This document shows positions 3,104 through 8,277 of a stretch of 10,873 bases of DNA, in pieces. Position 1 is the stretch's first letter. Each line of letters starts with the position of its first letter. A program made the position numbers and the translations under genes. Source of the stretch: a virus (Duplodnaviria; Heunggongvirae; Uroviricota; Caudoviricetes); IMG/VR virus record IMGVR_UViG_2529292887_000009. The stretch is one strand, 5' to 3'. The notes below the pieces were generated by a model. The model saw nothing but the letters and a program-made list of their open reading frames with translations. It did not search any database and had not been told where the DNA came from.

Positions 3104-3244
3104 TTACTGCTTACACTGTAAGAACGCCGCAATCTCCGCGCCCGCTATCCGGAACCGGAACTCGCACAGTGAAGTGTGGGTGATCCAGATAATGAGCACT
3201 ACCGTGATACACATCACGGTGGTTTTTAACGGTTTTTGCGACAT
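3104..3244 (-). CDS. Hok/Gef-family type I toxin (46 aa membrane peptide)
   Basis: Below the 60-aa cutoff of the ORF track; found by manual translation: MSQKPLKTTVMCITVVLIIWITHTSLCEFRFRIAGAEIAAFLQCKQ. Near-match to the Hok/Gef signature (C-I-T-VV-x4-I-x-[RG->H]-x2-L-C), with E[FIL]R[FY]R and E[IVL]AAF[LM]xC motifs as in HokA/HokB/Hok. Strong SD AAGGAG 8 nt upstream of the ATG (3244); TAA stop at 3104-3106. Confidence 0.7.
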   Translation of the reverse strand: MSQKPLKTTVMCITVVLIIWITHTSLCEFRFRIAGAEIAAFLQCKQ

Positions 3245-3397
3245 AACGCTTGCTCCTTTTACGGAGAGGCGCTAACCTTTCACTTGCTTAGGATGAATGG
3301 TCAGGCCTCGGGTTAAACATGAATGTTTTGTCCGGGGCCTTTTCACATCCGGCCTTCAGGTGTTCCCTCCGGCCATCAGCCAAAGGCACCCGCGCAT

Positions 3398-3442: not shown

Positions 3443-6400
3443 TCAGCGGATGCTGATCCCCGCGCTGTTTTTCTTCACCACTATCGCCTGAAGGTTACTG
3501 ATTCGTGAACTGCCCCAACTGTTATTCTGACGCCGTGAGCTCACGGTAAAACTCAGGGTGATATGACCACCGCCAGCTGGCATATCGATGATCCCGCTGA
3601 AAATTCCCGGCTCTGTCACTGACCTGCCTGAATAAATCCGGCGTCCATTCTGATCAACATGCAGGAAGCACTCTGTCCAGATGTCATTACTGGTGCGGGA
3701 TTCCTGTTTTGACCCGACATAGATTATCGGCGGGATTATAATCTGCCGGTCAAAGCGGTGATCGTCATACACCGTCAGCGTTCGTGTACCGTTCGCAAGG
3801 TGACTACCATCCACCGGAAAAGCCACCCCTGCACATTTCACAAGATCACCAATAATGTTCTCCGCTTTCAGCGTGCCATTTATCGTACAGTTCTCCGCTA
3901 TCACGACATTATTGAGCGTGCCCGAGTTCGCACTGATATGTCCGCTGATGTCCGCATTGCGGGCCGTCAGCCTGCCCTCCGGCGTCAGGGAGAACGTCGG
4001 GGGATTGCCGGACGAGGTGATGCTCACTGCAAACAGTCGCTTCAGGAACACATCGTTCATGAACAGCTGATTCCCCTGCGCCACAAACAGCGGCGTGGTG
4101 TTGCCGTTCTCCGGGTTAATCATCGCGATACGGTCCGCCTGCAGCAGAATATTGCTCAGGGGCTGGCCATCAGCATCCTCAATCCCCGCACCAATACCGG
4201 CAACATACGGAATGCCGTTTTTCGTTTTCTGCACCTTCAGCATGTACAGCGCTGCCAGCTCATCATTCGTGTCTGACTGGACCTGCTGTATCTGCTGTAT
4301 GGTCGCGCTCTGGTCTTCCAGGGTTTTACTGACCGTCTGTGTGATTTCATTGCGGGTTTCGGTGATGGTGGTCTTCATCTCCGCCATCTCATCATCAAGC
4401 TGGCTGTTATCAATCAGCTCCCACATCCCCTGTGCCAGATGTGTCTTCCCGATTTCTCCTCTGAAAAAGTCCAGATACCCTTCCGCATCATTGCTCGCCC
4501 GGCCACTGGCTTCCACAAACGCAGATTTCCCCACCAGATTGACGCTGCGCACATAAAACCAGAAATCCTTCCCCGGCCTGATGTGCGGGCCGGAGACGCT
4601 CCACTGGCTGCCGGTACCCAGATAACGGGCTGAGGTTTCCACCTGTGCCGTGTCCGTGATGCGTTTTTCTGAGAACCAGAATTCATACTGTACCGTCGGG
4701 TCATACACCGCCAGCACCGGTACTGCTGTTATCTGAAAATACCCCGGCGTCAGTTCAATGCTGGCCGGTGCCGCCGGTGCATTAATCCGGAATGTGGTGG
4801 TGGCAGGTTCGCCCTGCTGGCCGTAGCTGTTTATCGCCCTGACCGTCAGGGTGTATTCCCCGAGCGGCAGGCCACTGAAACGGTGCTCCGTGTCGGCAGT
4901 GATGGCGCTGGTCACCAGGCGGCTGTTTTCACCGTTTCCGCTGGTCAGGCGCAGACTGAAGCGCACGCCCTTCACCACCCGCGGCGTGTCCCATTTCGCC
5001 AGCGCCAGATACTGGCCGTCTGAGGCACTCACCTCCACCGTGAGGTGCTGCACTGCCGGCGGGATGACGCTGTTCAGTGAGCCGGACATCGGCTCAAAGC
5101 GGGCTCCGTTATCCACAATGGCTTCTTTTTCCGGTACGTGCTGCACTGCCGTGATGGCAAAGGTGCCGTCCGTGTTTTCCCGGATGGAAACACAGCGGAA
5201 CAGGCGACGACGCAGTGACGGCAGGGAGAGTCCCCACACACCGTATGTTGCCACGCCATCAGGCAGGACGCTGACCTGTATCCGGTCCGGGGCGGGGTGT
5301 GCAGTGATGTCCACGCGCACCGGCTTACCGCTGCCGTTAATCAGGTTCACCGTCGATGTCCCTGTCTCCGGCAGTGTCACCTCACGGTCCAGCGTCAGTG
5401 TGCGGCTGGCGGCATCGATGGACAGGATGCGTCCGCCGGTCAGGGTCCCGGCATAGTCGTTATCACAGATTTCAATGATGTCACCGGGTGTGTGCCGCAG
5501 CCCCTGAGACCCGAGCGTGAAATCCACCGTCTGCGTTTCCAGCAGTTCTGTCTTTATCACCCACAGTCCGGCACGGTGAGCCTGACCGCGGCTGGTACAG
5601 CCGAACGCGTCCATCTTCAGCAGGTTGCGCCCGTAGCGCAGGATGGCGTCCGGGTCTTCCACCAGTTCCGTGGACGTCTGCCAGCCGTTCTGCGGGTCAG
5701 TGTAATTCACCTCCACCGCCGTGTGCCGGTCCTTCAGGGCACTGAAGCTGTAGCGGAACCCCACGCCGTTATCATCCACCACCACATCGCTGTTGGTGTA
5801 CGGCCACACCACATCCGACGGACGGTCCTGAACGAACGTCAGCGTCTGGCCGTTCCATACCGGCATACAGCGCATCGCCGAGCAAAAATCCCCCAGGACA
5901 TCCCACACCTTACGCTGCTGTGACAGGTACGCATTAAAGGTCATCCGCGGCTCTGTGCCCCCGAAACCATCCGGGACCGTCTGGTCGCAGTACTGCCCGA
6001 TGGCATACAGCGCCCACTTGTCCACATCCGCGGCCCCCAGGCGTTTTCCCATCCCGTAGCGCGGGTGAGTCAGCATGTCCCACAGGCACCAGGCCGGGTT
6101 ATTGCTGTATGCCGGTTTCAGACTCCCGTCCCAGATACCGCTGTAGGTGCGTTTTTCCGGGTCATAGTTTGACGGCACCTGAATGATGCGGCCGCGGATA
6201 TGGTAGTTCACCACCATCTGCTGGCCACCGAACTGCTCCGCATCCACCTGCAGCCCCACAATGGCCGTGTTCGGGTAGCACTGTTTCACATCGATGATTT
6301 CGGTGTATGACGACCACAGCGTTCTGTTCTGCAGCTGGTCCGTGGTACTGTCCGCCGTCACCCTGACCACCCGGATGTTAAAGGGGCGCTCAGGGAGATT

Positions 6401-6910
6401 ATTCAGAATCACCGACGTCAGGTACTGCGAGGTGGTCTTGCCGTTAATGGTGACATCCTTCTCCGTCACCCAGTTACCGTTACGCTCAAGCTGAATCAGC
6501 AGGCGGACAGAAGAGGGATTACGGTCACCCTTTGAGGTGGTCTCCACCAGTGACTGCACCCCGAAGGTGACCCGCAGACGGTCAATGTTCGCTGACGTGA
6601 TGGTGCGCGTCACCGGCTTTGCCTTCGTCACCTCCACGCCCAGTGCGGTTTCTGCCCCGGAGGACTCAAAGCCTTCAGGTGGTGTCTGCTCCTGCTCCCC
6701 GGCACGCCAGACGGCGGTCACACCGTGTATCACGGGATTACCGTCCGTGTCCGTCAGCGGGGTTTTGTTCACCAGAATACTCTGCAGTCCCTTCACCGGA
6801 CCTTCCACCGGTCCCTCACCAATGGCATCAATCACGCTCATCATCTGCGTGGATTTGAGATTGTCCTTCGCCTCACGCGGTGTGTGCCCCTTGCCGCCCC
6901 CTTTACCCAC
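3443..6910 (-). CDS. J: tail tip / host specificity protein J (central tail fiber), about 1155 aa
   Basis: Long collinear similarity to lambda gpJ ([17 protein letters not shown]..., [104 protein letters not shown]). Start placed at GTG 6908-6910 (aligns with the lambda N-terminal MGKGSSKGHTP; preceded by AAAGGGGGA), not at the TTG at 6961 used by the ORF track. Confidence 0.9.
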
Positions 6911-6948
6911 TCTGTCCCCCTTTCCTGTCTGATGTCTGAATCTGTTTA

Positions 6949-6983
6949 TGCCCAAAAACAACAGGCACCCCGGAGGGTGCCTG
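6949..6983 (-). terminator. terminator-like hairpin (minus-strand orientation) just upstream of the J ribosome binding site
   Basis: 9-bp stem CAGGCACCC (6962-6970) / GGGTGCCTG (6975-6983) with a 4-nt loop; on the minus strand it is followed by TTGTTTTTGGG (plus 6949-6960). Confidence 0.35.
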
Positions 6984-6992
6984 TGTCATGAC

Positions 6993-7219
6993 GGAATAAA
7001 ATTTCTGAAATTCTTCACATTTCCGGCAATTGCCTGTAGCCGCAATAATGACGCTGCGTTACATTTTTGATGCCTGAAAAATAACTCCATAACGTTAATC
7101 TTCATCGTTCTCTCCCGCAGCTCCGCTGATTCTGCGGGATTTTTTTATCCCTTAAACCCGGCACGATGTTATCTGTCTTCTTCCACAGATACCCGCCTGG
7201 CTTCCGCTCCCCCGCTACC
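6993..7219. repeat. tandem repeat unit A (about 227 bp) of the I-J intergenic array
   Basis: Contains conserved block GGAATAAAATTTCTGAAATTCTTCACATTTCCGGCAATTGCCTGTAGCCGCAATAATGACGCTGCGTTACA, a variable segment, the hairpin CCCGCAG/CTGCGGG plus T7, and a 3' segment weakly resembling the 3' end of gene I. Confidence 0.8.
7113..7146 (+). terminator. plus-strand intrinsic-terminator-like hairpin, repeat unit A
   Basis: TCCCGCAG (7113-7120), loop CTCCGCTGATT, CTGCGGGA (7132-7139), then TTTTTTT (7140-7146). Orientation is antisense to the tail operon. Confidence 0.5.
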
Positions 7220-7441
7220 GGATAAAAAGTCTGAATTTATTCACATTTCTGCAAATTACCTGTAGCCACAATAATGACGCTGCGTTACATTTTTTGCGGG
7301 TAAATAAAAATAAAACGCCAACAGGTTAGTCAACATCGTTCTCTTCCCGCAGCACGGAGTACTGCGGGATTTTTTTATCCCCTGAACCCGGCATGATGCC
7401 TTCTGTCCTCTGCCACCGATATCCGGCCCCTCCCTTCCCGT
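7220..7441. repeat. tandem repeat unit B (about 222 bp)
   Basis: Same block order as unit A, with point substitutions and small indels (e.g. ...TTCACATTTCTGCAAATTACCTGTAGCCACAATAATGACGCTGCGTTACA...). Anchor TTCACAT recurs at 7014, 7240 and 7462 (periods 226 and 222 bp). Confidence 0.8.
7345..7376 (+). terminator. plus-strand intrinsic-terminator-like hairpin, repeat unit B
   Basis: TCCCGCAG (7345-7352), loop CACGGAGTA, CTGCGGGA (7362-7369), then T7 (7370-7376). Stem identical to unit A, loop different. Confidence 0.5.
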
Positions 7442-7665
7442 GAATAAAAATTCTGAGTTTATTCACATTTCCGCACACTGACTGTAGTGCTCATAATCAC
7501 GCTGCGTTACAGTTCATCTGCCAGAATAATGAAAAATTCCTTAAAGTTAATCTTCGTATCTCTTCCCGCAGGCGCCGAACACTGCGGGATTTTTTTTCAT
7601 CCCCGCCCGATAACCACCACTTTCCCGTCACCGCCCTCATCACGGGTGCTGATGTCCTGGGATAT
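7442..7665. repeat. tandem repeat unit C; its 3' segment is the real 3' end of gene I
   Basis: Block TGAATAAAAATTCTGAGTTTATTCACATTTCCGCACACTGACTGTAGTGCTCATAATCACGCTGCGTTACA followed by the same hairpin plus T8; the T-run abuts the I stop codon (7597-7599). Confidence 0.75.
7564..7597 (+). terminator. plus-strand intrinsic-terminator-like hairpin, repeat unit C (abuts the I stop codon)
   Basis: TCCCGCAG (7564-7571), loop GCGCCGAACA, CTGCGGGA (7582-7589), then T8 (7590-7597). Stem identical to units A and B, loop different. Confidence 0.5.
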
Positions 7666-8277
7666 CCGTCGTGAACCAACCAGCATTTCACCGTAAGGCA
7701 CCGGCATCGGATTCCCCTGAGCAATCATGTTGTCCAGTGACGAAAAATACGTGTTCTGTTTACCGTTATCCGTACTTTTGTATTCCGGCGTCTTTGCCTT
7801 CGGGGCCAGCATCTGGGCCACACCACCCAGTATCATGCTGGCACCCAGTGAGAACAGCATCGTGGTGGCAGTCAGCCCTCCGGCACTCAGGGCTGCGCCC
7901 CACAACGCCATCGTTGCACCGGCGGTGAAGAAAGAGCCCACGATGGCTGCAGCCCCCAGCACCACCTGAAAAACACCATTTCCCCCGGCCCCTGCCAGCC
8001 TCGGTACAATATGAATCACGGCTCTCCCGCTCAGCGGTTCATGAAGACGGGCATACACCGCCTCCGGCGCGGTATCCTCACCGGCAATACGTATCTGGTA
8101 CCAGCCTTCGTTCATCTGACCGCGGAATCCCGGCACCTGCAGCGACAGGGCACGGATGGCCTCCGCTGCCGTGTTCACATACAGGCTGATGCGGCGACCA
8201 AATCGTTGTAAATCCCCGTGAAGGCAGATGCGGACCAGTGGCGGTGACGCCAGACAGAATGCGTTCGTCGTTGCCAT
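7597..8277 (-). CDS. I: tail assembly protein I, 226 aa
   Basis: Collinear similarity to lambda gpI (ICLHGDLQRFGRRI, GAVIHIVPR.AGA, TDNGKQNTYFSSLDNM.AQGN, YGEM.VGSR). ATG at 8275-8277; overlaps the 3' end of K by about 100 nt, as in lambda. Confidence 0.9.
   Translation of the reverse strand: MATTNAFCLASPPLVRICLHGDLQRFGRRISLYVNTAAEAIRALSLQVPGFRGQMNEGWYQIRIAGEDTAPEAVYARLHEPLSGRAVIHIVPRLAGAGGNGVFQVVLGAAAIVGSFFTAGATMALWGAALSAGGLTATTMLFSLGASMILGGVAQMLAPKAKTPEYKSTDNGKQNTYFSSLDNMIAQGNPMPVPYGEMLVGSRRISQDISTRDEGGDGKVVVIGRG

Follow-up and report, generated by a model that had tools for sequence, protein, structure and literature searches.

Three tandem units between tail genes I and J of a lambdoid Escherichia coli prophage are probable small RNA genes of the EcOnc22/PasB type

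A repeated element in the I-J gap

The DNA studied here (the window: 10,873 nucleotides (nt), IMG/VR virus record IMGVR_UViG_2529292887_000009) belongs to a lambdoid, Stx-type prophage of E. coli, and carries an array of three non-coding repeat units between its tail genes I and J. Gene J, which encodes the tail tip (3443..6910, minus strand, GTG start at 6908-6910; Pfam GpJ domains with E = 1e-42 to 1e-24), flanks the array on its downstream side as the late operon is read. Gene I, which encodes a tail assembly protein (7597..8178, minus strand; Pfam Lambda_tail_I), is the upstream flank. RefSeq annotates their relatives as gpJ and tail assembly protein, and Pfam matches placed M, L, K and I upstream of the array and J downstream, every one of them on the minus strand. 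From the J start at 6910 to the end of I at 7597 the gap measures 688 bp, compared with 57 bp in 27 loci with a lambda-type I gene, in good agreement with an earlier sequence-only reading that had put these values at about 690 and 60 bp.

That reading had also described the gap as three head-to-tail copies of one module, anchored by TTCACAT at 7014, 7240 and 7462. The copies were recovered by self-alignment against shuffled sequence, by Tandem Repeats Finder and by a repeat search, and the anchors lie where they had been placed. The units start at about 6994, 7220 and 7442, giving periods of 226 and 222 bp. Tandem Repeats Finder reported 2.3 copies at 6994-7511 (period 226, score 529, 76% matches), and the repeat search returned a 78-nt block in three in-register copies at 6991, 7217 and 7439 (spacing 226 and 222; 86% and 73% identity), with the hairpin block likewise present in three copies. 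When the units were aligned block by block, the promoter block scored z = 18-22 over shuffles, the terminator 8-11 and the body 4-9, and nhmmer with a family profile scored units A, B and C at 136.8, 135.6 and 127.6 bits.

Read 5' to 3' on the plus strand, a unit consists of an AT-rich stretch, the element TCTGA-N6-TCACATTT, a -10-like hexamer and a conserved GCTGCGTTA with a T-run, followed by A-rich sequence that varies, by a core (for unit A, AACTCCATAACGTTAATCTTCAT), by a hairpin with the arms UCCCGCAG and CUGCGGGA, and by a U-tail. All three units have the hairpin and its T-run on the plus strand, opposite to I and J on the minus strand; the build of each is accordingly that of a small transcription unit opposing the late operon.

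Unit A (6994..7219, plus strand like all features of the units; nhmmer match 7004-7146) comprises promoter block, small RNA (sRNA) A, terminator and spacer 1. Its upstream element TCTGA-N6-TCACA, which resembles a CRP half-site, lies at 7004..7019 and its -10-like hexamer AATAAT at 7044..7049, with a second TAnnnT candidate at 7060-7065. The predicted sRNA A, of EcOnc22 type, spans 7056..7146 (about 79-91 nt depending on the 5' end) and closes with an intrinsic terminator at 7113..7146, in which the UCCCGCAG/CUGCGGGA stem is followed by U7 (-13.9 kcal/mol). Unit B (7220..7441; nhmmer match 7230-7376) has its upstream element at 7230..7245, the hexamer AATAAT at 7270..7275 within a mosaic promoter block, and a predicted sRNA B at 7282..7376 with the most divergent core (AAACGCCAACAGGUUAGUCAACAUC) and a terminator at 7345-7376. 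Unit C (7442..7597; nhmmer match 7451-7596) has no spacer and adjoins gene I; its upstream element lies at 7452..7467, its hexamer CATAAT at 7492..7497, and its predicted sRNA C at 7504..7597 with a terminator at 7564-7597, the U8 tail of which overlaps the I stop codon (7597-7599) by 1 nt.

Spacer 1 (7147..7229) and spacer 2 (7377..7450) are alike (77%, z = 10.8); both are members of a single spacer family also seen in other arrays. The block order originally proposed stands for the 5' block, the body and the hairpin with its T-run. Its last block, a segment resembling the tail of gene I, does not: neither spacer showed nucleotide similarity to the true 3' end of I (z of about 0), no sampled I allele has a spacer-like end, and the spacer reading frame is not conserved between arrays. 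A reading of the spacers as I-tail remnants thus finds no support at the nucleotide level. A search with spacer 1 (query 7140-7240) found no match in phage records.

Promoter blocks, RNA bodies and terminators

The upstream element TCTGA-N6-TCACA was present in all 50 distinct units having a 5' block, and it is kept in 38/38 array units and 55/55 single units. A -10-like hexamer was found in 47 of the 50, the aligned hexamers across the family being TATAAT (19), AATAAT (17), TATCAT (8) and CATAAT (2). A second -10 candidate lies in the motif GCGTTAnnnT, where T5, A6 and T10 are invariant. Upstream element, hairpin and T-run occur in every one of the 38 distinct array units and the -10-like hexamer in 29 of them. 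The three units of this window are intact, each with the upstream element, a -10 hexamer matching at five of six positions, a strong hairpin and U7-8.

The element TCTGA-N6-TCACATTT, invariant throughout the family, agrees with the CRP core (TGTGA-N6-TCACA) at 9/10 positions. By hand count its centre lies at about -44.5 or about -57 depending on the -10 chosen, both non-canonical when set against -41.5 and -61.5. PasB is more abundant in overnight lysogeny broth than in Dulbecco's modified Eagle medium, and Spf shows the reverse. Control of the units by CRP would be compatible with this growth-condition pattern, which is not specific to CRP, and is offered here as a lead.

The predicted RNAs are 79-95 nt long and, in per-sequence folds, combine a weakly structured body with a hairpin of -14 to -15 kcal/mol. 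The AU-rich body of about 50-60 nt runs into a strong intrinsic terminator with an 8-bp GC stem and U7-8; for A, B and C the hairpins reach -13.9, -14.9 and -15.3 kcal/mol and are followed by U7, U7 and U8. Across the family the terminator stem is kept while the loop varies in sequence and length (9-18 nt, again from per-sequence folds), and a second stem type, CUCCCGU...ACGGGAG, carries paired, compensating changes.

Bodies A and C retain the family core AACUCC/AAUUCC...GUUAAUCUUC, including an anti-Shine-Dalgarno-like CUCC/UUCC; the core of body B differs from it. The three bodies lie at 7069-7112 (A), 7294-7344 (B) and 7516-7563 (C). The most conserved stretch of the family is UUAAUCUUC, which adjoins the anti-Shine-Dalgarno-like CUCCUU. 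A seed has been proposed for PasB just upstream of its terminator (Zhu, Shabalina and Storz 2026 preprint, 10.64898/2026.05.13.724894), and its position is that of UUAAUCUUC.

The sequence-only reading held the array to be non-coding and conserved at the nucleotide or RNA level, and this was borne out: no frame is conserved across 54 distinct units. The one frame it had singled out, a 39-codon open reading frame (ORF) in unit A, lies on the minus strand, begins in the conserved core and starts MKINVMEL...; it is indeed frameshifted in unit B, and lacks a start codon in unit C. At the aligned start codon the 54 units have ATG in 27 and ACG or ACA in 27, variant ORFs range from 7 to 39 codons in inconsistent frames, and variation within the core by codon position 1/2/3 is 48/86/60, with no third-position excess. 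Pfam gave no match for the ORF in the unit region.

Relationship to EcOnc22 and PasB

Two published findings of Hfq-dependent prophage sRNAs lead to the same intergenic position. PasB of enteropathogenic E. coli E2348/69 is an 83-nt RNA from prophage PP6 (NC_011601.1, minus strand, 1466343..1466261), detected by Northern blotting with the probe AATCCCGCAGTGATCGCGGAGCT; its abundance falls in an hfq mutant (log2 -6.8 and -2.4), and RIL-seq, in which interacting RNAs are ligated and sequenced, recorded 37 interactions (Pearl Mizrahi et al. 2021, PMC8550237). That probe, AATCCCGCAGTGATCGCGGAGCT, is complementary to the hairpin shared by all units of the array. Interval and probe both map to the 240-bp I-J gap of E2348/69 (RefSeq), antisense to I and gpJ, and the PasB terminator lies six bases from the I stop codon.

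EcOnc22, EcOnc23 and EcOnc24 stem from the Sakai prophages Sp15, Sp14 and Sp11 (Tree et al. 2014, PMC4104026, Table S2). EcOnc22 gives a Northern band of about 85 nt, was bound by Hfq in CRAC (UV cross-linking followed by cDNA analysis), and is destabilised without Hfq (PMC4104026). The coordinates given there are those of an earlier Sakai genome version, and locating AgvB by Rfam gives a shift of about 128 bp. The three peaks fall on the plus strand between minus-strand J and I of Sp15, Sp14 and Sp11.

Unit A is nearly identical to the EcOnc22 unit of Sp15, with 138 of 143 positions shared (96%) over the unit and 87/91 over the predicted RNA. Against PasB, blastn aligned unit A at 82% over 72 nt, unit C at 77% over 69 nt and unit B through its terminator only, which makes body B the weakest family member by this comparison. 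The longest exact word shared by PasB and any unit of the window is at most 17 nt, and a search with word size 28 returned nothing. Rfam, which has no model for the family, gave no match in the array (E up to 1), nor in the PasB and EcOnc22 loci; the same search found AgvB in Sakai Sp10 at 96.5 bits.

The units of the window thus lie in the same I-J intergenic position and on the strand opposite the tail genes, a layout repeated in E2348/69, Sp11, Sp14 and Sp15; they share homology with validated members over promoter block, body and terminator; and they end in a GC stem with at least 6 U, a terminator that abuts the I stop codon in single-unit loci. By sequence and position, units A, B and C therefore belong to the EcOnc22/PasB family of Hfq-dependent sRNA genes. 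The relatives, expressed in two pathotypes as RNAs of about 83-85 nt, have been shown to bind Hfq and to depend on it for stability, and the U-tail and A/U-rich body of the units here would suit the same behaviour.

Distribution and composition of arrays

The region matched 1700 of 5426 complete E. coli genomes, where most matches span about 315 bp, corresponding to one unit. The exact three-unit array of the window recurs in five genomes at 99.5-99.9% identity. Genomes with it include NZ_CP027312 (strain 2013C-3181), NZ_CP075649 (STEC17-190), NZ_AP024130, NZ_AP045171 and NZ_CP042350. Other places with a query coverage of at least 80% mostly extend over about 984 bp, corresponding to four units. 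Few genomes have arrays of two to four units (about 84-94 of the 1700 module-carrying ones), and the strains with two to four different members side by side are a minority of bovine and human strains of the Shiga toxin-producing E. coli (STEC) type. Body type B was found in 84 of the 5426 genomes (127 places) and, in the loci examined, only inside arrays.

The first locus set comprised the window and 121 further loci, namely 80 IMG/VR loci with the closest I proteins, 34 from the genome collection and 7 from annotated records. Searching it with the unit profile gave 33 loci with no unit, 81 with one, three with two, four with three and one with four. The gap grows accordingly, from 57 bp without a unit to about 240 bp with one, about 424 with two, 688-715 with three and 932 with four. 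Copy number among relatives, the check suggested by the sequence-only reading, thus varies from 0 to 4 units per I-J gap. A pattern scan of IMG/VR (at least 120 loci) showed more than one hairpin match in three of roughly 80 rows among the matches listed.

Clustering of unit bodies from 251 loci at 85% identity gave 16 clusters, and arrays always mix different ones: A-U2-B-C, A-B-C (this window), A-B, 7-8, 7-11, 9-0-11 and 9-0-8. The promoter block of unit B (7230-7290) is a mosaic, its first ~35 nt being identical to unit U2 and the sequence around the -10 being unit A-like (compared with L002 3281-3345 and 3065-3125), while in four-unit arrays the B body stands behind a degenerate -10, GTGCAT. 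The mosaic promoter and the mixtures within arrays point to an origin by recombination between alleles of one slot, among units or prophages, rather than by recent duplication.

Among the genome-collection loci, lambda-type or E. coli prophage I genes lie on short or low-coverage contigs of unrelated species (L009-L024 and L031-L040; Pseudomonas, Shewanella, Streptomyces, Bacillus relatives and others). These are most simply explained as lambda or E. coli assembly contamination.

Other cargo and neighbouring features

In 13 related loci the I-J gap measures 851 or 854 bp and holds a Cu/Zn superoxide dismutase gene (sodC) on the sRNA strand (L066 3273-3800, minus strand, Pfam Sod_Cu 111.9 bits; 12 other IMG/VR loci are alike). 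There sodC has a terminator of its own, after which comes a 5'-truncated unit whose promoter block has been replaced. The occurrence of sodC and sRNA units in the same gap marks the I-J junction as a moron slot with cargo opposing the late operon. The array has the form of such a moron, a cassette between conserved phage genes, present in 0-4 units among relatives, each unit with its own predicted promoter and terminator.

Four further loci (L063, L065, L071 and L073) have a gap of 343-345 bp and a single unit with about 100 extra bases upstream of it. These bases hold another hairpin and T-run on the sRNA strand (AAACCCCGGTATCAGCAGATACCGGGGTTTTCTTT), possibly belonging to a second small transcript.

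A terminator scan also found a hairpin with a U-run on the sense strand of the tail operon (6951..6984, minus strand), with a 10-pair stem including 7 GC pairs, followed by TGTTTTTGGG. It lies about 40 nt upstream of the J start and outside the repeat, occurs once per locus, and stands before the first unit in all multi-unit loci printed as well as in the single-unit E2348/69 and Sakai loci. It could reduce read-through into J if antitermination is incomplete. Between this hairpin and the ribosome-binding site of J, the leader at 6927-6941 contains a 7-nt tandem repeat, GTCTGAT, with 2 copies here and 5 in strain OkiPb01697 (L002 2968-3003).

Directly downstream of J, a position occupied by lom in lambda, the window carries a hok/sok-like type I toxin-antitoxin locus (3104-3391, minus strand). 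Its parts are a Hok/Gef ORF of 46 aa (3104-3244; Pfam 39.6 bits) and, at 3233-3391, a sok-like Rfam match which, at 51.1 bits, is under the gathering score of 59 and is the sole notable Rfam match in the window.

Interpretation and alternatives

Three roles had been suggested for the array from its sequence: an sRNA array, a transcriptional insulator, or an element controlling J dosage. The first is best supported by strand, anatomy and homology to validated sRNAs. I consider it probable that the array consists of three separate EcOnc22/PasB-type sRNA genes, which occupy the I-J moron slot and are transcribed against the late tail operon. As far as sequence allows, the build of a unit is the standard one for a trans-acting, Hfq-dependent sRNA. 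In a lysogen, host RNA polymerase would make three RNAs of about 80-95 nt, one from each unit; Hfq would bind the U-tail and the A/U-rich body of each; and each RNA would use its single-stranded body to pair in trans with mRNAs of host or prophage. The core is kept in A and C but not in B, and the array thus probably widens the range of targets, with three partly different specificities rather than merely three doses.

Several observations weigh against this reading. The -35 regions are weak (TTCCGG, TTCTGC and TTCCGC), and a simple sigma-70 consensus scan of the window detected no promoter in the array. The 5' end is ambiguous: starts set by AATAAT give RNAs of 91-95 nt, and the 5' end of the 83-nt PasB fits the second TAnnnT better. 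The -10 is lost in 9/38 related array units, which shows that array members can decay, and no phage record in INPHARED carries an array. The CRAC peak of EcOnc22 coincides with the sRNA body by way of the coordinate shift of about 128 bp, itself a deduction. Finally, RNAalifold on a MAFFT alignment returned no consensus structure and no formal covariation statistic; this empty result is probably an alignment artefact, with four alternative-stem rows misaligned.

A bolder proposal, which I regard as possible and advance tentatively, is that the I-J junction acts as a cassette slot in which unit-level recombination shuffles and stacks EcOnc22/PasB-type sRNA genes that differ in their pairing regions, so that several specificities come to share one operator at one locus. 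If true, arrays of two to four genes would be co-regulated through TCTGA-N6-TCACA, possibly by CRP, and would amount to a phage-borne library of sRNA seeds.

Recombination between prophages might instead have left the array as a neutral by-product, in which a single unit (A, perhaps also C) works as an sRNA gene and the rest are passengers, redundant or decaying, with no function of their own. The rarity of arrays fits this, as do the mosaic promoter of unit B, the degenerate -10 in four-unit arrays and the confinement of body type B to arrays, and the near-identity of the three-unit copies (99.5-99.9%) leaves little time for selection to show. All three units here nevertheless keep the upstream element, five of six -10 positions, a strong hairpin and U7-8; 29/38 distinct array units are intact; and two units of the same type never occur in one array, which is unexpected under simple slippage. 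The passenger reading is rather unlikely.

Action in cis on the late operon appears unlikely. It would have the antisense RNAs, their complements or the hairpins alter processing, stability or read-through of the I-J mRNA and thereby determine how much J is made, or else have head-on transcription interfere with that of the late genes. In its favour, each sRNA can pair perfectly with the I-J spacer of the late transcript, the unit C U-tail runs into the I stop codon, and the separate sense-strand hairpin lies just upstream of J; a short antisense RNA with a cis effect has a precedent in the OOP RNA of lambda. Against this, the validated relatives occur in abundance in uninduced lysogens, whose late operon is silent, and many trans partners on Hfq are recorded for them; the terminators of the units point in the wrong direction for stopping late transcription; and the slot also takes sodC, an ordinary cargo gene. 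Pairing of the three RNAs with the start regions of J, I, K, L and M did not rise above shuffled controls (z -1.3 to 1.6). Since complementarity at the J translation start was nothing special, perfect cis-antisense pairing with the I-J spacer would be the only route to a role in J dosage.

The idea of an insulator survives less well. Terminators that oppose the tail operon end antisense transcripts and cannot stop late transcription, which disposes of it in its original form. As repeated terminators halting antisense transcription from downstream morons or host DNA before it reaches I-K-L-M, the array would have three strong plus-strand terminators in series, and the J-distal side does carry the hok/sok-like locus and other cargo. 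A single terminator would serve this purpose, however, and the promoter block, the single-stranded core and the Hfq-bound RNAs of about 85 nt in relatives would go unexplained, which makes this version very improbable. A small protein on the tail-operon strand, MKINV(K/M)EL..., translated from late mRNA between I and J, is barely credible and largely refuted: the unit A ORF has a GGGAG-like sequence upstream, some phage records annotate a hypothetical protein here and a few differences among PasB-type variants are synonymous in that frame, but the ATG is replaced by ACG/ACA in 27/54 variants including unit C, lengths run from 7 to 39 codons in disagreeing frames, codon position 2 is the most variable, and Pfam has no match.

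Comparison with known systems

The earlier suggestion that the array is foreign to the lambda tail module was correct in that lambda has none; the element as such is not new, each unit being a relative of the published EcOnc22/23/24 and PasB, and a single unit occupies the I-J gap of many Stx-type lambdoid prophages. EcOnc22/23/24 share slot, strand logic and sequence with unit A (96% over promoter, body and terminator). Each Sakai prophage holds one unit in a 240-bp gap whereas three different units fill 688 bp here, and the bodies of units B and C differ from that of EcOnc22. The literature search found no published target or function for EcOnc22. PasB shares with the array the slot, orientation, upstream element, terminator stem and the core AACUCCUU..UUAAUCUUCAU.

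A recent survey of PasB used blastn with word size 28 and query coverage >75%; it describes variants that differ by a few nt, usually one variant per genome with copies at least 28 kb apart, and states that Pas copies are not tandem (10.64898/2026.05.13.724894). No exact 28-nt word is shared between PasB and the units of the window, so these settings would miss all three units, the arrays and most of the family. Tandem arrays and the body clusters, at least 16 in number, are not described in the preprint, and no account of arrays came up in a literature search on EcOnc22, PasB and tandem sRNAs of the tail region. For the single gene there are earlier publications (Tree et al. 2014; Pearl Mizrahi et al. 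2021; 2026 preprint), and the stacked array of variants is unreported in the literature searched. With at least 16 body clusters in a modest sample, the family is far more diverse than a near-invariant, single-copy PasB would suggest, and long-word BLAST settings miss most of it.

The anti-sRNAs AgvB and AsxR (Rfam RF02702 and RF02703) are likewise short, Hfq-binding and prophage-encoded, sit at conserved moron positions in the same prophage group, and have relatives that agree in the 3' part and vary in the 5' part. They differ in slot (downstream of PR'/stx), in sequence and in length, being shorter at 51-60 nt, and sponge activity such as theirs is not indicated for the array. An identity of the array with AgvB/AsxR is ruled out by their location downstream of PR' and by the lack of an Rfam match in the array. 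Both are established examples of prophage sRNAs that rewire host regulation in pathogenic E. coli, the setting in which the present family matters.

Adjacent or multiple sRNA genes with shared promoter logic, a shared terminator and partly different bodies are also seen in OmrA/OmrB, PrrF1/PrrF2 and Qrr1-5, which the 2026 preprint cites. Those are core-genome genes that arose by duplication, unlike the array, which lies in a phage tail operon and appears to have been assembled from slot alleles by recombination. Phage morons (Juhala et al. 2000) are self-contained promoter-to-terminator cassettes between late genes that are expressed from the prophage. The array shares slot and strand with morons such as the prophage Cu/Zn sodC, but its cargo is RNA-only and repeated. 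It offers a natural system for diversification of the pairing region while promoter and terminator stay fixed, and against all of these systems it is not a new kind of element; what is unusual is the stacking of different variants.

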